This document shows, in pieces, positions 2 to 56,308 of a stretch of 64,000 nt of DNA. The first letter of the stretch is position 1; each line of letters begins with the position of its first letter. The stretch is from Pseudomonadales bacterium (GTDB taxonomy: Bacteria; Pseudomonadota; Gammaproteobacteria; Pseudomonadales; JBFGWM01): assembly GCA_041682035.1 (NCBI GenBank), contig JBFKKR010000001.1, forward strand, positions 2,792-66,791, in the 5' to 3' direction. The notes below the pieces were generated by a model. The model worked only from the letters and a program-made list of their open reading frames with translations. It was not told where the DNA came from and did not search any database. The position numbers were made by a program, and so were the translations under genes.

Positions 2-2218
2 GTCACCGCCACGCGGGCCAGTCTGGCCCGACAGGCCGTTGGTGTCGGTCCCGTAACCAAACCCGAACAGGGGCTGCCGGTTCTTTTTCGCGCCAGCCAC
101 CGCTTTCTCGTGGATCGACAGCGTCTCTGCCATGTCCTCGCGGAAGCCGCGGCTGGAGCCGTTGCTCGGGTACAACACACCGCCGGCACGCAGCAACCGT
201 GTCGCCTGGTCGATGGTGGTGCCCCCGAACGTGCCGTGCGTGGAGACGATGGGGTACGGCGGCTCCTGCGACTCGGTCAGCTCCAGGATCTGCGTCTTCA
301 TGCCCATCTCGGCATGATCCCAGTCGAAGATGAAACCCCGCGCCATGATCGCCTGGTAGGCGAACAGGCCGATCGGCGTCATCCAGCGCGCGTTGCACTG
401 CCGGTTGTTCTTCGACTGCGGATACTGGTCGAACGGCGGGTAATCCGAGAAACGATAGCCCTCGTACTCATTGGGAATCTCGCCCGACGGGTAACAGGGT
501 GTGGGCCCGCCCCAGCGCCCGTCCTGGCCCAGGGGATGGCAGTACGGCGGTGACAGGTAGCTCTGCGTGCTGCCGCCGCTGCTGCCCCAGAGGTAGCCGC
601 TGAAGCCCTCGGTCTCCCCCTCGATCGGGCAGTCATAGGTGGTCCACCACTCACCGGTCGGCGTCTCGGCCGCACCCGGGTTGTCGAACAGCGCGGCGAC
701 CTGCGAGGCGTCTCCGCCGGCGGCCAGCAGGTTGGTGGCGCGGGCAAGATCGCCGGAGGGAATCATGCCGGAGTTCTCGCGGTTGCCCAGGTTCAGGATG
801 AGGCCGTCGAAGATGCCGTTGCCACCGAACGCGTTGTCGAACTCGTGGATGGTGATGAGCTGGCGCACGCCCCAGCCCCAGGCCCGCTCCATCTGCTCGA
901 CGAGGCTCTCCGGGGTGCAGGTATAGGAATTCTCGCCCGGGGTGAAGTACATCGGCTCCTCGTGCGGCCCCTTGCGCTCCGGGTTCTGCGCGTAGTTGAC
1001 CTTGCAGTTGAACAGGTTGGAGATCTCGATGCCGAGGATGACCGCGATCTTGCCATCGGCGATCACCTCCCGCGCCTGGGCGGCGTTGTGCACGATGCGG
1101 AAGAAACCGGCACCGCGGCCACCGTACTGCGCATCGATGTAATCCATCATGCCGTACATGGTTCCGGCCTGGCGGCCGGCGTTGTTCATCGAATTGCAGT
1201 CGATATTCGGATTCCCGGAGATCTGGCGCTGCAGTTCACAGAGCGTCTCGTTATCGACGAGGTCGTTGACGATGACACGCAACCCGGCGGCCCAGCTGCG
1301 CTCCAGCCATTTCCAGTAGATCGCCTCGTGGGTGAGCATGTCGCGCGCCGGCCACTCGTTGAAGTGGGGGAAGCCGGCGGTGTCATGGCCGTCGGTGTCC
1401 GTGGCGAACAGGCCGCCGACGATGTCGCGGTAGCCATTCGGCCCGTGCCGCTCGCTGCAGTCGGACAGCGCATGCTCGACCCCGAACCTGTGGTAGGGAT
1501 AGCCATGCTGCAACCCGCCGAGGAACTCGGTCGCACTGATGTGCACGTGCGCATCGACGTGCCCGACCACGCTGCCGTCCGGTCGTGTGCCGCTGAAGGG
1601 CCTGCCACTGAAATTGCTCTCCGCCTCGGGGAAGTTGGCGCAGCCGCCTGCGGGCACGAAGCGGAACGCTTCCGCATTGCCGGTGACCGCGAGCCTGCCG
1701 TCGCCGACGGCCAGGAACTGCCCGGGCGCCTGGGTGGACTCGATGGTGAACGTCAGCGACTGGATTTCCGGATCGACGAAACCGGTGTATGCCTGCACCT
1801 GTTCCGGCGTCGGCTCACGGTGGTAGGCGGGCGTCGGCGGATACCCGGTGGTGTCGCCGGCCGCCTTGACCGTCCATTCCACCGAATCATCGGCTTCCGC
1901 CCGGCTGCGACCGGACAGGCTGCCACCGTCGTTGGCCAGGAGGCGGCCACCGGCGTCATGCAGCATGTACTTCCCGAGCGCGGTCGGCTTCAGGTAAAAC
2001 GGCGCCGCCGCAGCCACTTCGGCGGCATCGGCACGGTAGCCCGATGCCGCGTCGCCGACGTACTGCCCGCTCGCCTCCACGTACAGTGCCCAGCACTGGT
2101 TGGCCATGGCGTAGCGGGTGCGTGCCTCGCCATGCACGGCCCAGGCCGTCTGCGCCGTGCAGGTGAGCAGGGAAAGAAAGAGTGCGCCAGCCGGCGCGGC
2201 GATTCGGATGGGGTTCAT
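2..2218 (-). CDS. Secreted amidohydrolase-superfamily-like protein, N-terminal 739 codons (C-terminus runs off the left edge)
   Basis: Absent from the supplied ORF track. I checked every in-frame triplet on the minus strand: ATG at 2218-2216 and no stop codon down to position 2. The product starts MNPIRIAAPAGALFLSLLTCTAQTAWA (Sec-signal-like) and contains HVDAHVHIS (HxH metal motif). Codons end mostly in G/C, as in the other real genes. The overlapping listed ORFs translate to Arg/Pro/Ala-rich nonsense. Confidence 0.8.
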   Translation of the reverse strand, partial: MNPIRIAAPAGALFLSLLTCTAQTAWAVHGEARTRYAMANQCWALYVEASGQYVGDAASGYRADAAEVAAAAPFYLKPTALGKYMLHDAGGRLLANDGGSLSGRSRAEADDSVEWTVKAAGDTTGYPPTPAYHREPTPEQVQAYTGFVDPEIQSLTFTIESTQAPGQFLAVGDGRLAVTGNAEAFRFVPAGGCANFPEAESNFSGRPFSGTRPDGSVVGHVDAHVHISATEFLGGLQHGYPYHRFGVEHALSDCSERHGPNGYRDIVGGLFATDTDGHDTAGFPHFNEWPARDMLTHEAIYWKWLERSWAAGLRVIVNDLVDNETLCELQRQISGNPNIDCNSMNNAGRQAGTMYGMMDYIDAQYGGRGAGFFRIVHNAAQAREVIADGKIAVILGIEISNLFNCKVNYAQNPERKGPHEEPMYFTPGENSYTCTPESLVEQMERAWGWGVRQLITIHEFDNAFGGNGIFDGLILNLGNRENSGMIPSGDLARATNLLAAGGDASQVAALFDNPGAAETPTGEWWTTYDCPIEGETEGFSGYLWGSSGGSTQSYLSPPYCHPLGQDGRWGGPTPCYPSGEIPNEYEGYRFSDYPPFDQYPQSKNNRQCNARWMTPIGLFAYQAIMARGFIFDWDHAEMGMKTQILELTESQEPPYPIVSTHGTFGGTTIDQATRLLRAGGVLYPSNGSSRGFREDMAETLSIHEKAVAGAKKNRQPLFGFGYGTDTNGLSGQTGPRGGD

Positions 2219-2454
2219 GCTGTGGATTCCCGCTGTACTGCCCGGGCGGCCTGCGAGGGGGTGGGGCCCGGCTGATCCTGTGCCAATGCGGGTCCGCGCA
2301 CGAACCCGCCTGTTCGTAAAACAACCGCCATGCAGCGGCCATCGAACAAATTATGGCCCACGATGGACCTCGCCGCCCCGGCGGAAAGTTGGGTTCTGGC
2401 CGCCCGAATGACCGGAGAGCCTCTGAAACGCCTCCTTTTGTGCCCAAAAAGTGA

Positions 2455-4053
<1,599 letters not shown>

Positions 4054-7705: not shown

Positions 7706-8434
7706 TCAGATCGCCAGCCTGCGCACCACCGGGTGGTCGTCGCCGGTCAGTTCCATGACGAAGTCGGACGGGTTCTCGCGGACACAGAAATCCATGTCTG
7801 CCTGGTCGAAGTCCGGCTGCGCCGGGTCGAGGAATTTCTGCGCCGCGGCCGAGGCGAGGATGTGATCCCGCATCCGTGCCGAGGCGTCCGCATCCTCCTG
7901 GCCACGGATCATGCTCTCGATGAAGCGCGCGCAGTGCATGTCCTCCTCGCCGCTCGGATGCGAACCAATGATGTTGATCCGCCGGATCCGCCCGGCGAGC
8001 ACCTCCTCGCGGACGTAATGCGCGGTGGCACGGGCGTTGGAGAAGCCCGTCACCACGACGCGGCCGACCCGCAGGGCGTTCAGCGCCGACGGCACGCCGT
8101 TGGTGGTGGTCAGGATGATGCTCTTCCCGGCCAGGTCCATCGCCGCCACCTCGGCCGGTGAATTCTGGATATCGAAACCCTCGATCTTCTTCGACTTGCG
8201 CTCCCCGGCCAGCACGTGATCGGGGTTCGCCGCCTTGGCGGCACGGGCCTCCTCGACCGACCGGTAGAGAAAGACCTGCTCGGCGCCACTGAGAAACGCG
8301 CAATGGCTCATGGTGAAGGCGCGGATCACGTCGATGGCGATGGACAGTGCATCGTCCAGCAGTTCCGGATCATGACCCTGGGCCACCCGGATCTCGATAT
8401 CGGGCGTGGTGAGGGGCTGGAACGGCGAATTCAT
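7706..8434 (-). CDS. 2-phosphosulfolactate phosphatase (ComB) family protein
   Basis: SIAIDVIRAFT...ILTTTNGV...VVTGFSNA pattern, and a length (242 aa) typical of the ComB family. Confidence 0.7.
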   Translation of the reverse strand: MNSPFQPLTTPDIEIRVAQGHDPELLDDALSIAIDVIRAFTMSHCAFLSGAEQVFLYRSVEEARAAKAANPDHVLAGERKSKKIEGFDIQNSPAEVAAMDLAGKSIILTTTNGVPSALNALRVGRVVVTGFSNARATAHYVREEVLAGRIRRINIIGSHPSGEEDMHCARFIESMIRGQEDADASARMRDHILASAAAQKFLDPAQPDFDQADMDFCVRENPSDFVMELTGDDHPVVRRLAI

Positions 8435-8557
8435 CGGCAGGCACCATCGTCTAAAAAGGCGCCAATCATAGACGTCCGGCGGTCGCCCGTGAACCCCGCA
8501 CGAGCTACCCGCCGGGAGCGGCTATCCTAGGGAGGATTCCAACCGTGTAGCCGCCCC

Positions 8558-10267
8558 ATGCCCGACCAAGCCGAGAAACGCCCGCTCTACATCCCCTTCG
8601 CCGGCCCCGCCCTGCTGGAGACGCCCCTGCTGAACAAGGGCAGCGCGTTCTCTGCCGAGGAGCGGCTGGCCTTCAACCTGGAAGGGCTGCTGCCGCACCG
8701 CATCGAGACCATCGAGGAGCAGGTCGCGCGCGTGTACCGGCAGTTCTGCGAGAAGACCACGGACATGGGCAAGCACGTCTTCCTGCGCAGCATCCAGGAC
8801 ATGAACGAGACCGCCTACTACCGGCTGATCAGCGAGCACCTGGCAGAGATGATGCCGATCATCTACACGCCGACGGTGGGCCAGGCCTGCCAGCAGTTCT
8901 CGCAGATCTACCGCCGCAAGCGCGGCCTGTTCATCTCCTACCCGGACCGCGACCGCATCGACGACATGCTGCAGAACGCCACCAAGCAGACCGTCAAGGT
9001 CATCGTCGTGACCGATGGCGAACGCATTCTCGGCCTCGGCGACCAGGGCATCGGCGGCATGGGCATTCCCATCGGCAAGCTGGCGCTCTATACCGCCTGT
9101 GGCGGCATCAGCCCCGCCTACACGCTGCCGGTGGTGCTGGACGTCGGCTGCAACAATCCGGAAGTGACGGAAGACCCGATGTACATGGGCTGGAACCATC
9201 CGCGCATCACCGGTGACGAGTACTACGCATTCGTCGACATGTTCATCCAGGCAGCGCTGCGCCGCTGGCCGGACGTACTGCTGCAGTTCGAGGATTTCGC
9301 GCAGGCCAACGCGACGCCGCTGCTGCGCCGCTACCAGGACAGGATGTGCTGTTTCAACGACGACATCCAGGGCACTGCCGCCGTCACGGTGGGCACGCTG
9401 CTGGCCGCCTGCAGGGCCAAGGGCGAGAAGCTCAAGGACCAGTCGGTGGCCTTCGTCGGCGCGGGCTCCGCAGGCTGCGGCATCGCCGAGCAGATCATCG
9501 CCGAGATGTGCAGCGAGGGCCTGCCCGAGAAGGAAGCGCGCGGTCGCATCTACATGGTGGACCGTCATGGCCTGCTGGTGGACGACATGCGTGGCCTGCT
9601 GGATTTCCAGTCTGTGCTTGCCCAGCCCGCGGCCAGGGTCCGCGCCTGGCCGCGCGGCGCCGACCAGGCCAGCGACAACCCGGGCATTCTCGAGGTCATC
9701 CAGCAGGCGCAGCCGACCGTACTGGTGGGCGTCTCGGGCCAGCCCGGCCTGTTCACGGAACGGGTCATCAAGACGATGCACGCGGGCACCGCCAGGCCCA
9801 TCGTGCTGCCGCTTTCCAACCCGACCTCGCGGGTGGAAGCCAAGCCCAAGGACATTCTCGGCTGGACCCAGGGCGCGGCCATCGTCGCCACCGGCAGCCC
9901 GTTCGACCCGGTCGCCGTGGAAGGCGAGGCACCGCGGGCGATCGCCCAGTGCAACAACAGCTACATCTTCCCGGGCATCGGCCTGGGCGTGCTGGCCGCG
10001 CGCGCCGGCCGCATCACCACCAACATGCTGATGGCCTCCAGCCGGGCGCTGGCCGAGTGTTCGCCGCTTGCCACCGGCGCGGGCACGGACCTGCTGCCGC
10101 CACTGGACGAGGTGCCCGCGGTGAGCCGCATGATCGCCCGCGCGGTGGCGCGCCAGGCCATTGCCGACGGCGTCGCCATGCAGATTCCCGAGGACGCGCT
10201 GGATGCCGCGGTGGAGCGCAATTTCTGGAAACCGGTGTACCGCAGCTACCGGCGCACCTCCTTCTGA
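8558..10267 (+). CDS. maeA: NAD-dependent malic enzyme
   Basis: [13 protein letters not shown]...[25 protein letters not shown]...[11 protein letters not shown]. 569 aa. Confidence 0.93.
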
Positions 10268-10450: not shown

Positions 10451-14464
<4,014 letters not shown>

Positions 14465-14491: not shown

Positions 14492-15487
14492 TCAGCGCGA
14501 TTCGCGGGGCGGGCTGAAAACCGGTTTCGGGGGAGCGGCGTTCCGCCGGTCCACGCCCAGGCGCCGGCCCGGTTCCGCCGGCACGCCCGCGGCGGCGCGC
14601 CGGTCTGCCTCGTGCCGCCGTTCGTCGTGCCGCCGTTCAGCGAAGGATTGCAGCCGGCAGTTGCACTGCAATCGCTTGTTGCAGGTCTCCAGCGGCAGCT
14701 TCGGCACCTCGAACTCCGAGAAACACAGGCCGTCCAGCGCCTGCGCGGCGCGGCAGCAACGCTCCGCTTGACCCGCCACGAGGATCACGTCACCGGCGGT
14801 TTCCGCCGCTGCCCCGACCGCGCCTGCGGTGTCCGCTTCCGTGGGCTGCGCCGGCCGCGAAACAGGGCGCCGGATGCTGTTGAAATCGAGGCTGATCGAG
14901 ACGTTGCCCTTGGCGGGAATGGCGGGCGCGATGCCGTTGCCGGCGAAATCCGCATCGCTGCGATCCGGGAACAGGATGCGAAGACGTTCCGGCACCGGCC
15001 CGGACCGGCACGAATCCAGCAGGTGATGGATGAAGAGGCTCTGCAGGAAGCTCTGGAACAGCCGCGCGGACTGCCCGGCCATGAGCTGCAGTCCGGCGAC
15101 CCAGTCCATCCCACGGCCCTGCTCGCGGCTCTTGCGCACCGAGCGGACCACGTAGTCCTGCGCAAACAGCGGGGCATCGTCCCCGGCATCGTGCGCCTCC
15201 AGCCGGACCTCCTCGCCCACCTGCAGGCGGATGGAAAGCAGCGCCCCGAAACCGGCGGCGCCGATATCGGCGATCGAGGCCCGGGTAGTGGCGTCGCTGC
15301 GCAACTGGGTACGCCGCAGGACGAAGTAGAGCGTGCGTGCGCGGCCGGGCCCGTCCACCACGTACAGGCTGGGAATCCGGGCGATGCGTACCTCGCTGCG
15401 GCGGAATTCCTGGAAGACCTCGTCCACTTCCGCCACGGGCGCCGGCCCGGAGGGCGTGGCAATGATGTTCCGGCGTCGTTCTTTCAA
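14492..15487 (-). CDS. PilZ-like (long-spacer subtype) protein with Cys-rich region and Arg-rich tail; start uncertain
   Basis: The minus frame has G/C-ending codons from about 15487 (TTG) down to the stop at 14492. Further upstream the third-position GC drops. Motifs are RRSEVR, then 39 residues, then DIGAAG, then [10 protein letters not shown]. Seven Cys lie in [34 protein letters not shown]. The tail is [11 protein letters not shown]...GVDRR. Confidence 0.6.
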
Positions 15488-28857: not shown

Positions 28858-29364
28858 CTACTGGGCGCTGACGCCACCTTCAGCAGAGACACCGACCGAA
28901 GCGCCGGTCTTGAGCGCCTTGTCCGCAGCCTCGGCTGCCTTGCCGACACCGGCTTCGGCCTTGCCGCGCACCTTGCCTTCGGTTTCCATGCCCTTGGCCT
29001 TGGCCTGGGCGCCCTTGTCACGCGCGCTTTCGTGCGCCGCGGCCGCCTTGGCCTGGCCGGCTGCCTTCGCGTCTACCGCCTTCTGCGCCGCTGCATCGGA
29101 TGCAGCCTTGCCGTCGGCATTGGCGTTCGCCTTGGCTTCTGCCTTGGCTTCTGCCTTTGCATTGGCCTTGGCATCGGCCTTGGCATCGGCCTTGGCTTCA
29201 CCACCACCGAGCAGACCGCCCACGGCATTGACCGTGCGGTTCACGATGCCGGTGTCCGCGCTCGCTTCGGCGTTCACGTTGGCCTCCGCGCTGGCGCCGG
29301 TTTCCGCCAGGGCGGACGTGGAAATCAGGGCTGCTGCCAGCAGCGTCATGGATGCTTTCTTCAT
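28858..29364 (-). CDS. Secreted Ala/Lys-rich repeat protein
   Basis: Signal peptide MKKASMTLLAAALISTSALA|ET. (K-A-x-A)n run AKADAKADAKANAKAEAKAEAKANANA, encoded by about 12-nt DNA repeats (roughly 29117-29199). Confidence 0.7.
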   Translation of the reverse strand: MKKASMTLLAAALISTSALAETGASAEANVNAEASADTGIVNRTVNAVGGLLGGGEAKADAKADAKANAKAEAKAEAKANANADGKAASDAAAQKAVDAKAAGQAKAAAAHESARDKGAQAKAKGMETEGKVRGKAEAGVGKAAEAADKALKTGASVGVSAEGGVSAQ

Positions 29365-30891: not shown

Positions 30892-32241
30892 TCAGCCCGA
30901 AGAATTGTTGCGCGCGGCCAGATAGATGCTGTCAAGGGCTGCCTTGTACAGCAGGTTCTCGACCCCTGCGTCCAGTTCCAGTCCGAAGGCGGAGACGTGG
31001 TCGCCCATCTGCCTGGCGCGCTTGGCGATCGCGCCGCGCATGCGCTCGATCGCTGACATGTTGCGCACCGTGAACGGCAGTTCGAACAGCACCGATTCCT
31101 CCGCCGCGCAAAAGCCGGTCACCACCACCCTTTCGCCGATCTTGAGCCGGATATTGGCCAGCAGGCGGGCGCCTTCCGGGGAGAAGTTGAGCATCTCGGA
31201 GTGCACGGCGCGGTCGGAGTCGGTCCCCTCCTTGCGGATGCGCAGGTCCACGTTGCGTGGCTTCTCCTCGCCCTCCATGAGAATGAACAGCTCGACGGCC
31301 AGGTCGTCACGGGTGGAGCGGCGGCGCACCTCCTCCTCGGTCATCTCCACTTCCGCGATCGGCAGGTAACCGAAGGTCGTGTTGGCCGAGTACGAGTCGC
31401 CAGGCGTTTGCCTGGGCGCCGCCGGCGCCATTGTTTCAGCCATGGCACTCTCGCTCATGGCAGGTTCGTCCATTGATCCGACGGCATCCGGTTCTTCGGT
31501 GTCCATGTCCGCCGACTCCGCGCCGGCAGACGCCACCGGTTCGGCCGCCTCGTCGGCCGCCGTCGACGGATCGCTGCCGGGCGCCGCAGCATCCCCGGTA
31601 GCACCCGACGGCGGCGCATCCTCGACCGGAGGCGCCTCCGGTTCCGCGGCTGCCTGCGCTTCAGCGTCGGCAAGGGCGGCCTGCGCGTCCCCGTCCTTCA
31701 GTTCCTCGACCACCATGCCCTGCGGTGCACCACCACCGGAGGGAGCCACCTCGGTTTCCCTGCGAATGATGTCCAGGCACTCCTGCGTGGCATTCAGCAG
31801 AATGCGCGCGTCACCCGGGTCCATGGACAAACCGTGGACGAACAAAGGCCGGTCCTCGAAGCCCCTGGGTCGGGGACGGTCCGCAGGGAAATCGCGCCGG
31901 TCGACGAGGATCGCATTGACATCCAGCTGGGGCTGCGAGCTCACCGCGAGATTACCGAGTATGTGCACCCGCGCGCCGACATCAAGCCGTTCGGTACAGA
32001 CCACGCCGACACCGCCCTTGTTCACGTCGTACAGGAAGCAGTCCACCGGACTGCCGCACCCCTCGAGGGAGATCTGGAGATCCAGGCGTACGAACTGGTC
32101 GGGCAGCACCAGCACAAAAAGACCGATCGGCGCGGGAATTCTCCGTCCGTTCTGTCGCCTCTTTTCGTGGCCGCGCTTGTTGGCGCCATCCGAACCGAAG
32201 GTGATCGGCTCGGAGAATCGGCGCATGAGTGAACCAAACAT
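30892..32241 (-). CDS. Tandem di-PilZ protein with acidic Ala/Pro/Glu linker
   Basis: N-terminal domain: RRQNGRR, 38 residues, DVNKGG. C-terminal domain: RRRSTR, 40 residues, NFSPEG. A linker of about 110 aa is rich in A/E/P/D. The C-terminal helix is ENLLYKAALDSIYL. Confidence 0.78.
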   Translation of the reverse strand: MFGSLMRRFSEPITFGSDGANKRGHEKRRQNGRRIPAPIGLFVLVLPDQFVRLDLQISLEGCGSPVDCFLYDVNKGGVGVVCTERLDVGARVHILGNLAVSSQPQLDVNAILVDRRDFPADRPRPRGFEDRPLFVHGLSMDPGDARILLNATQECLDIIRRETEVAPSGGGAPQGMVVEELKDGDAQAALADAEAQAAAEPEAPPVEDAPPSGATGDAAAPGSDPSTAADEAAEPVASAGAESADMDTEEPDAVGSMDEPAMSESAMAETMAPAAPRQTPGDSYSANTTFGYLPIAEVEMTEEEVRRRSTRDDLAVELFILMEGEEKPRNVDLRIRKEGTDSDRAVHSEMLNFSPEGARLLANIRLKIGERVVVTGFCAAEESVLFELPFTVRNMSAIERMRGAIAKRARQMGDHVSAFGLELDAGVENLLYKAALDSIYLAARNNSSG

Positions 32242-32361
32242 GGCGACTATTCTATCTCCCGGCTCCGCATAGTCACAGGAAAATCACGCATCGCGGAATA
32301 GGAAAAATGCGAGTCCTGCCTCACCCGGACCGGCGGGCGGCGTGCCCGGCCCGGCCCCGCC

Positions 32362-33756
32362 TCACCCATTTTCGTCCGTGCGCGACAACGCGCAGACGGG
32401 GATCGGTTCCGGAAAGCCCTTCAGTGGCTCCGGCTCGCGCATCTCGCGCCGGATCGGCGCCTGCCCGTCGAGTGCATCGGCCGTGCGGATGTCCGCCAGC
32501 ACCTCGCCGGCGGCGGCGCGATCGCTCAGCCGGGCGGCGAGGTTCACAGGATTGCCCACCGCCACGTACTCGAGCCGTCCGGCGCCCTTCAGGGTGCCGA
32601 CAGTCGTGTTCCCGGTCGCGATGCCGACGCCGATTCCCAGTTGCGGCGCCGTCGTGCGCAGCATCCGGCTGCCCTGCTCGGCGAGATCCAGCGCCAGTTG
32701 CGCGGCCTGGCTTGCATGGTCCGGCTGCGGTATCGGCGCGCCTACCAGGATCAGCACACCATCGCCGGCATGGTCCTTGATGGTGCCGCCGTACTTGGCG
32801 GCAATTTCCCCGACGACCCGGTAATACCGCTCCAGGACGTTCATGACGATGTCGGAGTCCTGCGTGCGCGCGAACTGGGTGAAACCGCGCAGGTCGCTGA
32901 ACACCACGCTGAGCACCCGGCGCTCGCGCGCCATGGTGGACTGGATGCCCTGGATGCGCACCAGTTCCGCCACCTCCGGCGAGAGAAACTGGCTCATGAA
33001 CTGGCCGCGCTGGTTCTGCACCACGAGGTACCGCACGGACCCGGCCAGGTAGATCAGCAGGCCCAGCGTCATCAGCAGCGGCACGTACAGGTCTTCCACG
33101 ATGAGCGCCAGCAGCAGCAGCGGCGAGGCGATCAGCAGGGCCCGCAGGCGGATGCGTTCGGCGCGATCGACGCGCGTCACCAGCGTCACGGCGATGGCGA
33201 TGCCGGCGCACAGCAGGGCCGTGCCGAGCACCGGTGCGAAGATGGCCCACTCCAGCCCGCTCACCTGCACGGCACCCTCGCGATCGCTCATCGCGAGTTC
33301 CGGCGCGATCATCAGGTAGCCGATCTGCAGCCCCAGGAATACCACCACCAGCACCTGCGAGAGGATGAAGAGCGTGCGGATCGCCCAGTGCGCCCCGGTG
33401 CCGGCGCGACCGACGCGCTTGCCCCACTCGATGCCGAAGAAGATGCCCGCCGCCTCCAGCGTCTGCGCGACCATCCCGACGAGGATGCCGCCGGTGGTGC
33501 GGAAGTCCTCGTCATAGCCCATGATCAGCATGCGGACGCCGATCGCGAGCAGAGAGTAGGCGAGCGGCCGGCTGGTCGGGTTGGCGCGATCCAGGCGCAG
33601 GAAGATCAGCCCACAGCCGGCGGTCATCAGGCCGACGGTGAGGAACGGGGTTTCGAGGGCGGACACTAGGTCACGACCCGCGGCTGTGCGGCTGCGAAGG
33701 CGCCGGCGCCGGTATCGGTCGTGCCTGTCAGGCGTGGTGCGGTCTCCATGCAGCAA
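32362..33756 (-). CDS. Membrane-anchored class III adenylate/guanylate cyclase (start uncertain; GTG at 33666 is possible)
   Basis: About 6 TM helices, then VVFSDLRGFTQFA...IKDHAGDGVLILVG...VAVGNPVNLAARL. Confidence 0.87.
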   Translation of the reverse strand: MLHGDRTTPDRHDRYRRRRLRSRTAAGRDLVSALETPFLTVGLMTAGCGLIFLRLDRANPTSRPLAYSLLAIGVRMLIMGYDEDFRTTGGILVGMVAQTLEAAGIFFGIEWGKRVGRAGTGAHWAIRTLFILSQVLVVVFLGLQIGYLMIAPELAMSDREGAVQVSGLEWAIFAPVLGTALLCAGIAIAVTLVTRVDRAERIRLRALLIASPLLLLALIVEDLYVPLLMTLGLLIYLAGSVRYLVVQNQRGQFMSQFLSPEVAELVRIQGIQSTMARERRVLSVVFSDLRGFTQFARTQDSDIVMNVLERYYRVVGEIAAKYGGTIKDHAGDGVLILVGAPIPQPDHASQAAQLALDLAEQGSRMLRTTAPQLGIGVGIATGNTTVGTLKGAGRLEYVAVGNPVNLAARLSDRAAAGEVLADIRTADALDGQAPIRREMREPEPLKGFPEPIPVCALSRTDENG

Positions 33757-55011: not shown

Positions 55012-55145
55012 CTGTGCACACTATGGAGTCGAATCAATTTTATGTCAACACATGTACACTAAATAATTTATAAACTATATATATCAAGCATTTATGCAAT
55101 GTTTATGTGTGTACAATAAGTAATTCATTGCGCATGCGTGGCAGC
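55012..55145. promoter_or_regulatory. AT-rich divergent control region with repeated TGT(G)NACA(CT) half-sites (putative DesT operators)
   Basis: This is the only strongly AT-rich stretch of its size in the window. It contains AGTGAACAACTGTGCACACT (55002-55021), TGTCAACACATGTACACT and ATGTGTGTACAAT. Confidence 0.5.
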
Positions 55146-55826
55146 ATGAATACACTTGTGAACATCATGACCAAGACTGCCAGGAACCCGGATCGGCGGG
55201 TACGACGGGTTTCGCGCCGGGGCGACACCCGCCAGGACCTGTTGTCGGGCGCCCTGAAGCTGCTGGACGAGGACAAGAGCCTGGACAGCCTCTCCCTGCG
55301 CGAACTGACCCGCCATGTCGGGATCGTGCCCACCGCCTTCTACCGCCACTTCCCGGGCATGGACGAACTGGGGCTGGCGCTGGTGGAGGAGTCGTTCCGG
55401 GTCATGCGCAAGATCTTCGCCGACGTGCGCAACGACACCGGCTCCACCGACCGGATCATCGCCGGGGTGGTGAAGTCACTGGTGACGCACGCACGCAAGA
55501 ACCGGCTGCACTTCCGCTTCGTGGCCTCGGAGCGTTACGGTGGCAATCCCGGCGTACGCGAGGCGATCCGCAACGGCATGCGCCTGCTGCAGGGCGAACT
55601 GGCGCTGGAACTGGCGCGGTTCCCCTACCTCAAGGAATGGACCGCCAACGACCTGCAGATGCTCGCCGCCCTGCTGGTGAACAGCATGACCATGATTGCC
55701 GAGGAAATCCTTGAGCAGCGCGGACTGGACAAGTACGCCGAAAGGGAACTGATGGAGGTTGCGGAGAAACAGCTACGGCTGATCGTGCTGGGCATCCCTC
55801 ACTGGCGCAGCGGCGCGACGGGCTGA
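55146..55826 (+). CDS. desT: TetR-family regulator, DesT-like (start uncertain)
   Basis: HTH SLRELTRHVGIVPTAFYRHFPGMDELG. It is divergent from the desaturase operon. Confidence 0.83.
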   Translation: MNTLVNIMTKTARNPDRRVRRVSRRGDTRQDLLSGALKLLDEDKSLDSLSLRELTRHVGIVPTAFYRHFPGMDELGLALVEESFRVMRKIFADVRNDTGSTDRIIAGVVKSLVTHARKNRLHFRFVASERYGGNPGVREAIRNGMRLLQGELALELARFPYLKEWTANDLQMLAALLVNSMTMIAEEILEQRGLDKYAERELMEVAEKQLRLIVLGIPHWRSGATG

Positions 55827-56308
55827 GCCGACCGCCGCTGCATGCAGTTCAGGTAGAGGGTGTCCAGCGCCGCCTTGTAGAGCCGGCTGAATGCGCTGTC
55901 CGGGAACTCGAAGCCGCTGACGAAAAACGCGTTGCCGTCGTCGTACCTGCGGCGGCAGCCCAGCACCACGAGATCCTCGCTGAACAGCGCCTCGGGCTCG
56001 GCATCACACGTTGCGCACAACGTGATGCGTTCACCGGCGGGCAGGCGTACCGAGGTGGCCACGGACAGCCCACCGTCACTGATATCGAACAGCGTCGCCT
56101 CGCAGACCTGGGCGGTGTGGCCGTAACGGATCACCGACAGTTCCAGGCGCGTCACCGTCCCGTCCGGCAGCACCAGCGACAGCCCCTCGCCCGGCCGGAC
56201 CCGCCGGCTCTCGCGGCGCGCCCCGTGGACCGAATCGTCCCCTCCCATCAGGGGCGGCTGCTCCTGCACCTGGTTTGCCAGCGAAGGCGCGATAGGCCGC
56301 TCCGGCAT
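55799..56308 (-). CDS. Single-domain PilZ protein (long-spacer subtype)
   Basis: RRESRR, 38 residues, DISDGG. The C-terminal helix SRLYKAALDTLYL matches that of the di-PilZ protein. Its 3' end overlaps the desT 3' end by 28 bp in convergent orientation. Confidence 0.8.
   Translation of the reverse strand: MPERPIAPSLANQVQEQPPLMGGDDSVHGARRESRRVRPGEGLSLVLPDGTVTRLELSVIRYGHTAQVCEATLFDISDGGLSVATSVRLPAGERITLCATCDAEPEALFSEDLVVLGCRRRYDDGNAFFVSGFEFPDSAFSRLYKAALDTLYLNCMQRRSAQPVAPLRQ

Follow-up and report, generated by a model that had tools for sequence, protein, structure and literature searches.

Our analysis of a 64,000-nucleotide stretch of DNA from a Pseudomonadales bacterium (GCA_041682035.1, contig JBFKKR010000001.1, positions 2,792 to 66,791; hereafter the window) showed that the gene at 30892..32241 on the minus strand encodes a protein of 449 amino acids, here called A, with two divergent PilZ domains, and that both belong to a small PilZ family in which the two ligand-binding motifs are unusually far apart. 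PilZ is the most widespread receptor for cyclic di-GMP (c-di-GMP), and binders are predicted by rules that place the motifs ~20-30 residues apart and an Arg loop directly before strand beta1. The long-spacer family breaks the spacing rule, yet the residues that contact the ligand are its most conserved positions. From the sequence, we suggest that A may be a bivalent adaptor that responds to c-di-GMP, with the adjacent membrane-bound class III nucleotidyl cyclase as a possible target; we hold this reading tentatively, as somewhat short of an even chance.

The start of A at 32241, with the N-terminus MFGSL, is kept at the DNA or protein level in three relatives (L002, L007 and P0004), which upholds the coordinates given for the gene in an earlier note on this DNA. 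Its GC content at the three codon positions (0.70/0.47/0.80) is the coding pattern for a window of 66% GC. The Pfam family PF07238 (PilZ) matches A in two stretches at 34.1 bits, above the gathering cut-off of 22.5, which places the protein within that family, and hydropathy reveals no transmembrane segment in A, which indicates a soluble protein. Its features are the following.

30892..32241, minus strand: di-PilZ gene, protein A, 449 amino acids, with an N-type domain, an acidic disordered linker and a C-type domain (open reading frame, PF07238, GC by codon position, orthologs)
31747..32184, minus strand: N-terminal long-spacer PilZ domain (N head), residues 20-165 (motifs, alignment, family hidden Markov model, HMM)
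32140-32160, minus strand: RRQNGRR of the N head, residues 28-34
32104-32124, minus strand: predicted extra strand GLFVLVL of the N head
32011-32028, minus strand: DVNKGG of the N head, with Ser replaced by Asn, residues 72-77
31759-31803, minus strand: terminal helix ILLNATQECLDIIRR of the N head (alignment)
31387..31746, minus strand: acidic Ala/Pro/Glu-rich linker, ~120 amino acids (composition, non-conservation, predicted local distance difference test score, pLDDT, below 50)
30895..31386, minus strand: C-terminal long-spacer PilZ domain (C head), residues 286-449 (Pfam, motifs, alignments)
31327-31365, minus strand: conserved segment LPIAEVEMTEEEV before the Arg motif of the C head
31309-31326, minus strand: RRRSTR of the C head, residues 306-311
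31276-31296, minus strand: extra strand VELFILM of the C head
31171-31188, minus strand: NFSPEG of the C head, residues 352-357
30919-30954, minus strand: terminal helix LLYKAALDSIYL of the C head

The C head also carries a basic insert between beta5 and beta6. The linker (~residues 166-290, 120-130 amino acids) contains 26 acidic and only 2 basic residues, together with 33 Ala and 15 Pro; we measure it at ~120-128 amino acids, more than the "about 110" first given, and in the alignment of A orthologs its length ranges from ~40 to 135 amino acids and its sequence is unconserved. An open reading frame on the opposite strand, 31379..32272 (+), was rejected as a gene, its codon-position GC (0.51/0.72/0.74) being a non-coding pattern.

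Two stand-alone members of the same family lie elsewhere in the window, together with a canonical PilZ domain that serves as an internal comparator.

55799..56308, minus strand: stand-alone long-spacer PilZ protein B, 169 amino acids (family HMM, AlphaFold2 model, Foldseek; PF07238 at 19.1 bits, below the cut-off)
56201-56218, minus strand: RRESRR of B
56168-56182, minus strand: extra strand LSLVL of B
56069-56086, minus strand: DISDGG of B
55850-55885, minus strand: terminal helix RLYKAALDTLYL of B
14492..15436, minus strand: long-spacer PilZ protein C, 314 amino acids from the GTG at 15436 (family HMM, motifs; PF07238 at 13.7 bits, below the cut-off)
15386-15403, minus strand: RRSEVR of C
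15251-15268, minus strand: DIGAAG of C, with Ser replaced by Gly
15029-15064, minus strand: terminal helix of C, 12 residues
10451..10771, plus strand: canonical PilZ domain at the N-terminus of a PilZ-DUF1631-GGDEF-EAL protein, D (Pfam, motif gap of 22)

The gap between RRxxxR and D/N-h-x-x-x-G is 38 residues in the N half of A, 40 in the C half, 38 in B and 39 in C, against 22 in the canonical PilZ of D (RRSHRR, DYSLGG), so that all the spacings in the earlier note (38 and 40 in A, 38-39 in B and C, 22 at 10451) were correct. The RxxxR motif of c-di-GMP-binding PilZ domains is present in all four long-spacer copies (RRQNGR(R), RRRSTR, RRESRR and RRSEVR). The second motif is less uniform. The proposal that both halves of A carry RRxxxR and (D/N)xSxxG is right for RRxxxR in both and for NFSPEG in the C half, but the N half has DVNKGG, that is DxNxxG, whose Asn is invariant in four A orthologs; a strict match to [D/N]hSxxG is found in the C half of A and in B (DISDGG) and not in the N half of A or in C (DIGAAG). 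The four copies align in register from the Arg motif through the terminal helix, and the helix described as common to three of the four domains is indeed present in the C half of A (LLYKAALDSIYL), in B (RLYKAALDTLYL) and in C, with a homologous ILLNATQECLDIIRR in the N half of A.

These copies match one another over their full length with E values of 1e-4 to 4e-12 (in a five-sequence database) and match the canonical PilZ of D only trivially. When all six reading frames of the window were searched with the family HMM, these four and no others were found, the same number as had been counted before; the PilZ of D scored an E value of 0.9. In an exhaustive HMMER search of 1.84 billion representative proteins with a profile of the four-copy domain (E up to 1e-3), 53 hits were returned, ~40 of them covering the whole domain. 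The motif gap is 37-40 residues in 46/46 domains of the 40 family proteins, outside the canonical ~20-30, and the weak tail of the hits consists of ordinary PilZ domains with gaps of 22-30. According to the literature the gap is ~20-30 residues in canonical PilZ and >90 in tetrameric, helix-inserted PilZ; together with the fixed gap in all 46 domains, this identifies the long spacing as a family character and not a common PilZ feature, and the notion of a distinct long-spacer subfamily, amounting to ~40 clusters in 1.84e9 proteins, is borne out.

The family signature reads LPxhEVxxxExx-RRxSxR-hxxP, followed by an extra strand (beta0, see below), D/N-h-x-x-x-G, PLF, an invariant Gly in the last strand and LYKAxLDS in the helix. 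Among the 46 domains, which share ~20-30% identity, the sole invariant columns are the three Arg of RRxxxR (46/46, 45/46 and 46/46), the Gly of the second motif (46/46) and the structural Gly (46/46); the D/N of the second motif is found in 45/46. The residues of the ligand motifs are thus the most constrained positions of the family. The second motif varies at its third position (Ser in 25 domains, Asn in 13, Gly in 5, and Cys, Ala and Thr in one each).

The family is tiny. In a collection of 5.8 billion proteins, A orthologs make up only four clusters (46-100% identity) and B orthologs only five. Word-indexed protein searches returned 4 proteins with full-length A, 5 with B and 5 with the domain profile, the last of these missing the A family, so that the family becomes visible only by an exhaustive search of representatives. 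A scan of JGI metagenomes for the helix pattern LYKA[ATV]LD[ST][LI] gave 92 pattern matches and no relative. Sequence searches of the PDB with A, B and the family profile yielded nothing significant, and the kinship to solved PilZ structures is therefore visible only by fold or profile-profile comparison. Assignment to TIGR02266, a Myxococcus family of PilZ-like paralogs, was rejected (13-17 bits against a cut-off of 68.7). So far the family is known only from uncultured Pseudomonadales and a small number of metagenomes, and the named ortholog records are metagenome-assembled genomes (MAGs) of Pseudomonadales from 'Mix_sand' samples. Another MAG contig of this order (L005) has family genes at 420..1115, 1913..2728 and 7875..9053, all on the plus strand, two of them stand-alone and one a di-PilZ, within 9 kb and with no cyclase; three family genes in this contig and three in the 64-kb window indicate that the family has expanded and clustered in the lineage.

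The extra residues appear to extend the PilZ fold without interrupting it. An AlphaFold2 model of the B domain, built on a 14-sequence alignment of paralogs (pLDDT of 81.8; predicted template modelling score, pTM, of 0.74), has seven strands, at residues 15-18 (LSLV), 24-33 (beta1), 39-48 (ending in DIS), 53-57, 66-72, 81-95 and 98-105, and a 19-residue terminal helix at 112-130. In a Foldseek comparison of this model with the PDB, the top ~34 matches are all PilZ (YcgR 5y6g, MrkH, MotI, BcsA, PP4397, Alg44, PlzA, PlzD and MapZ), with a best E value of 2.8e-4 and template modelling scores of 0.45-0.59 among the PilZ matches. Profile-profile alignment (hhalign) with 11 canonical PilZ domains gives a probability of 97.9% and an E value of 5e-13, and spans the region from the beta1-beta2 loop to the last strand. 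The three approaches agree with the PilZ-barrel fold that had been assumed, and by alignment with the modelled paralog B we infer that the two heads of A would also fold as PilZ barrels. In the Pfam alignment, beta1 falls on residue 328 of A, which lies 17 residues beyond RRRSTR. Taken together with the B model and the hhalign alignment, this indicates that the extra ~16 residues form one strand, beta0, and a turn before a lengthened beta1, and that the barrel is uninterrupted. The earlier idea of an inserted beta-hairpin was thus right in that the additional residues form beta structure, but AlphaFold2 and Pfam point to a single strand pairing with the longer beta1 and not to a hairpin inside the barrel. 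Similarly, the C-terminal helix had been put forward as a distinct effector surface; its LYKAxLDS sequence is specific to the family, but the helix itself is a defining element of every canonical PilZ.

The two heads of A have different origins. The N head is 31-35% identical to the stand-alone proteins P0018-P0020 and does not significantly match the other head of A, which in turn shares 43% identity with the stand-alone protein P0021. The order N-type then C-type is repeated in two more distant di-PilZ proteins (P0013 and P0014). Since each head is nearer to stand-alone proteins than to the other head, A is best described as a fusion of two old paralog types. A recent tandem duplication was rejected, each head being closer to stand-alone proteins of other organisms than to its partner. 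Between beta5 and beta6 the N type has a Pro/Arg-rich RPxPxxF segment and the C type a basic, probably helical RMRGAIAKRARQMG segment, and these inserts, more than the helix, would be the candidate type-specific partner surfaces.

The gene directly upstream of A provides a candidate partner.

32362..33666, minus strand: membrane class III nucleotidyl cyclase, 434 amino acids from the ortholog-supported start, the open reading frame running to 33756 (PF00211, hydropathy, PDB alignments)
32242..32361, minus strand: 120-nt intergenic region between the cyclase and the di-PilZ gene (promoter scan, ortholog comparison)

The earlier placement of a membrane class III cyclase 120 nt upstream on the same strand is confirmed by the positions of its stop codon (32362..32364) and of the ATG of A (32241), by a PF00211 match at 9.5e-17 and by ~six hydrophobic segments in the hydropathy profile, which are followed by the catalytic domain at ~residues 215-434. 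In the PDB it is matched best by Cya2 of Synechocystis (2w01) and CyaB of P. aeruginosa (3r5g); FSDLRGFT, AGDG and VNLAAR align with both and are invariant in 5 orthologs, identifying the enzyme as class III. We take FSDLRGFT and AGDG to be the metal-binding Asp sites and VNLAAR the Asn-x3-Arg transition-state pair. In place of the Lys of CyaB and the Glu of Cya2, the enzyme has the Asp of IKDHAGD (with a Lys one residue earlier), and in place of their Thr and Gly, respectively, the Val of EYVAVG, both invariant in the five orthologs. These are, presumably, the base-selecting positions of class III cyclases, and the residues fit neither the adenylate (Lys + Asp/Thr) nor the guanylate (Glu + Cys/Ser/Gly) pattern; the product is thus not confidently cyclic AMP or cyclic GMP.

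The same-strand pair, with the cyclase directly upstream and a gap of 105-135 nt, is found at 5/5 ortholog loci, namely the window (L001) and, in order of decreasing identity of the di-PilZ, L007 (64%), L004 (57%), L002/L003 (56%) and L006 (46%). The outer flanks vary among these loci (a citrate synthase or a GGDEF gene upstream; an iron-containing alcohol dehydrogenase or a low-molecular-weight phosphatase gene downstream). The cyclase is better conserved than the di-PilZ, at 63-84% identity among orthologs, and the whole protein, membrane domain included, is widespread, with 47 metagenome loci at 31-50% identity.

We propose that A would be a cytoplasmic two-headed c-di-GMP receptor or adaptor, each head a PilZ barrel with a C-terminal helix. 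Both heads are of a small lineage-restricted variant in which the RRxxxR loop is separated from the barrel by beta0 and an elongated beta1, an arrangement that fixes the motif distance at 37-40 residues. They belong to different paralog types that have been fused, and a flexible acidic linker, which differs in length between orthologs, holds them together. In each head, the RRxxxR loop and the D/N-h-x-x-x-G turn would close on c-di-GMP from two sides, and this clamping would order the N-terminal segment and expose or create a partner-binding surface, for which the type-specific beta5-beta6 inserts and the LYKAxLDS helix are candidates. As partner, the likeliest candidate would be the product of the cyclase gene 120 nt upstream, a dimeric membrane enzyme of class III, each of whose subunits would take one head; the level of c-di-GMP would then tune cyclic mononucleotide synthesis. 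That the bivalent protein acts on the adjacent dimeric cyclase is the weaker suggestion, drawn from gene neighbourhood only, and that c-di-GMP-loaded A directly switches the enzyme seems to us rather unlikely. The cross-talk between cyclic mononucleotides and c-di-GMP hinted at in the earlier note likewise draws on gene neighbourhood only.

Several observations weigh against this model. Linkage to the cyclase gene does not extend beyond one narrow clade; a long-spacer PilZ gene is found beside the distant cyclase homologs at 0/47 metagenome loci, 28 of which extend at least 900 nt downstream, and the neighbours sampled there are unrelated (HAD, TonB, MFS and carboxypeptidase genes). No cyclase lies near the second di-PilZ paralog, on contig L005 of the same MAG as L004, and the neighbours of B and C are likewise unrelated. 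The intergenic region has a weak terminator-like hairpin after the cyclase gene (32309-32327) and a single sigma-70-like match, GTGACT-N16-TAGAAT, which ends 7 nt before the ATG of A. The promoter-like element and the hairpin make it possible that A is transcribed separately and not in an operon with the cyclase. The 35 nt preceding the ATG (within 32242..32290), which include the promoter-like element, are conserved between the window and L007 and partly in L002, with GGGAGA 13 nt upstream of the ATG, and A may be transcribed from its own promoter, possibly as a leaderless mRNA. A c-di-GMP riboswitch in the intergenic region was rejected, since no Rfam family matches anywhere in the 64-kb window. 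At the level of structure, an AlphaFold prediction of full-length A with four orthologs (pLDDT of 39.8, linker below 50) gives no head arrangement, and that the Arg loop would reach the second motif past beta0 is a matter of argument. Lastly, the Ser of the second motif varies, being an invariant Asn in the N head and Ser in 25/46 domains of the family, so that some heads may bind c-di-GMP weakly or not at all.

It is possible, if somewhat unlikely, that A is a c-di-GMP receptor with some other target, and that its adjacency to the cyclase gene reflects shared ancestry or co-regulation in a narrow clade. The lack of a PilZ partner beside distant cyclase homologs, the unrelated contexts of B, C and the L005 genes and the possible promoter of A itself all fit this explanation. 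As far as the available accounts go, the targets of stand-alone PilZ adaptors are as a rule unlinked and acted on in trans, which also counts in its favour. However, the pair has outlasted a change of both flanks and the divergence of the di-PilZ to 46% identity at all five ortholog loci, a persistence that counts against it.

A second alternative is that long-spacer domains are PilZ-like scaffolds that have ceased to bind c-di-GMP, as in PA2960 and XCC6012, and that serve purely as protein-protein adaptors. The N head, protein C and ~45% of the family domains have another residue in place of the Ser, the inserted strand alters the path of the Arg loop, and B and C score below the Pfam threshold, all of which would fit a scaffold. 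Yet the three Arg, the D/N and the Gly are the best-conserved positions of the whole family, whereas loss of binding in PilZ domains has gone along with loss of the RxxxR loop or of both motifs, and in PA2989 c-di-GMP is bound although the second motif is altered and the gap exceeds 90 residues. We consider the scaffold explanation improbable. Judging from their motifs, at least the C head of A and B are fairly likely to bind c-di-GMP; binding by the N head and by protein C is less certain because of the Ser replacement in the second motif.

A bivalent c-di-GMP adaptor also has to be weighed against a change of ligand. It is very doubtful that what the two heads of A sense is the product of the neighbouring atypical cyclase, whether by itself or in combination with c-di-GMP, and we would call it highly improbable that the variant pocket in general has been retuned to another nucleotide, be it this product or a different cyclic dinucleotide. 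The unusual Asp and Val at the base-selecting sites of the cyclase (against Lys/Glu and Asp/Thr/Gly), invariant in 5 orthologs, would suit such a retuning, and the family-specific RRxSxR, a second motif that varies at its third position and the changed geometry of the loop are consistent with it. However, the retained motifs are exactly those that contact c-di-GMP and most family members have no cyclase neighbour, and we know of no PilZ protein that senses a cyclic mononucleotide. That the motifs arose by chance in a spurious open reading frame of a GC-rich genome is an idea already refuted: Arg-rich spurious open reading frames are plentiful across the window on all strands, but A has a coding pattern of GC at the third codon position and orthologs with conserved domains and a drifting linker, and Pfam, hhalign and Foldseek agree on its identity.

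The other genes of the family and their surroundings deserve brief description. In B, residues 18-28 read PPLMGGDDSVHG, where four B orthologs have the conserved PPLPEVEE of the family before the Arg motif; this could be a local divergence or a small indel in the window copy. The 3' end of B overlaps that of a convergent TetR-family gene (55107..55826) by 28 nt (55799..55826), an overlap identical in L008 and L009, and the neighbours of B kept in relatives (a flavin monooxygenase, the TetR gene and ferredoxin reductase/desaturase genes) suggest no function. For protein C the start at 15487 given before is unsupported: the gene is called from the GTG at 15436 (P0015), and the GC pattern upstream looks non-coding. 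After its PilZ helix, C has an unrelated tail of ~165 amino acids (14492..14990) that ends in (E/D)RR repeats (...GVDRRN); no homolog of this tail was found, and P0015, the representative of C, forms a singleton cluster. Protein D (1337 amino acids, 10451..14464, plus strand) has the unusual architecture PilZ - DUF1631 - GGDEF - EAL and a nearly all-Gly run of ~50 residues near residue 430, and its gene ends 27 nt from the convergent gene for C. A 168-amino-acid open reading frame at 28858..29364 (minus strand), called as a gene in L001, has a signal-peptide-like N-terminus and Ala/Lys-rich repeats (AKAEAKAEAKANANAD), and no Pfam family.

The long-spacer family contributes to the understanding of PilZ as a natural test of how far the Arg loop can be re-routed. 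Since two of the three members in the window are missed at the Pfam threshold, it also reveals a blind spot of annotation. If the pairing with the cyclase reflects a physical link, it would provide a direct protein-level route from c-di-GMP to cyclic mononucleotide synthesis, a route of which the literature searched holds no documented example; if the heads did read the cyclase product, A would be the first receptor of PilZ fold to recognise a nucleotide that is not a cyclic di-purine. No PilZ variant that combines the beta0 insertion, a fixed gap of 37-40 and RRxSxR with the LYKAxLDS helix, and with fusion into a two-headed protein that is paired with a class III cyclase, was found in Pfam, NCBIfam or the literature searched. 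Its general kind is already known, as lineage-restricted, tandem and insert-bearing PilZ variants have all been documented.

Compared with canonical PilZ domains (PF07238; MapZ/PA4608, the YcgR C-domain, Alg44 and the BcsA PilZ), the long-spacer copies share the six-stranded antiparallel barrel with a C-terminal helix, the N-terminal RRxxxR loop and a second-motif turn at the end of beta2, which reads strictly D/N-h-S-x-x-G in the C half of A and in B, in keeping with their detection by Pfam, hhalign and Foldseek. They differ in the extra strand and longer beta1, which bring the gap to 37-40 residues instead of ~20-30, in the conserved LPxhEVxxxExx before an Arg motif of the form RRxSxR, in a second-motif Ser that is often Asn or Gly, and in the LYKAxLDS signature of the helix; two of the three proteins of the window fall under the Pfam threshold, and searches of the PDB, one with a profile among them, found no sequence relative. 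The tetrameric PilZ proteins (tPilZ; PF16823; XCC6012 and PA2989) likewise have extra sequence between RxxxR and the second motif. In these proteins, however, the insert consists of two long helices (~57 amino acids) between beta1 and beta2, takes the gap beyond 90 residues and drives tetramer formation, whereas the long-spacer insert is of ~16 residues, predicted to be beta, and precedes beta1; PF16823 gives no match at E values up to 1, which sets the family apart from tPilZ.

Two PilZ-type barrels in one polypeptide are also found in tandem PilZ-PilZ and YcgR-like proteins (the SMc00999 family, MrkH and YcgR/PlzD/PP4397), and such PilZ-PilZ tandems are already common, with >240 in Pfam and >1000 SMc00999-like proteins. 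Their N-terminal barrel is usually without motifs and helix, their RxxxR lies in a short interdomain linker and one ligand bridges the domains, whereas in A both heads carry an Arg motif, a second motif and a helix of their own, are separated by a disordered linker of 40-135 amino acids and stem from two different types of stand-alone paralog. A has no match to the Pfam families PilZN or YcgR_2, which distinguishes it from the YcgR-like proteins. The closest parallel to the gene pair is XC_0250/XC_0249 of Xanthomonas campestris, where a class III cyclase gene is linked to that of a cyclic mononucleotide-binding GGDEF protein and cyclic GMP acts on c-di-GMP synthesis (PMC3770947). In both cases a class III cyclase gene adjoins a c-di-GMP signalling gene; the coupling of the two signals is known in Xanthomonas, and in the Pseudomonadales pair the parallel is one of gene adjacency. 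A differs in being of the c-di-GMP receptor type, with no cyclic mononucleotide-binding domain, and any flow of information would thus run from c-di-GMP to the cyclase, opposite to that in XC_0250/XC_0249.

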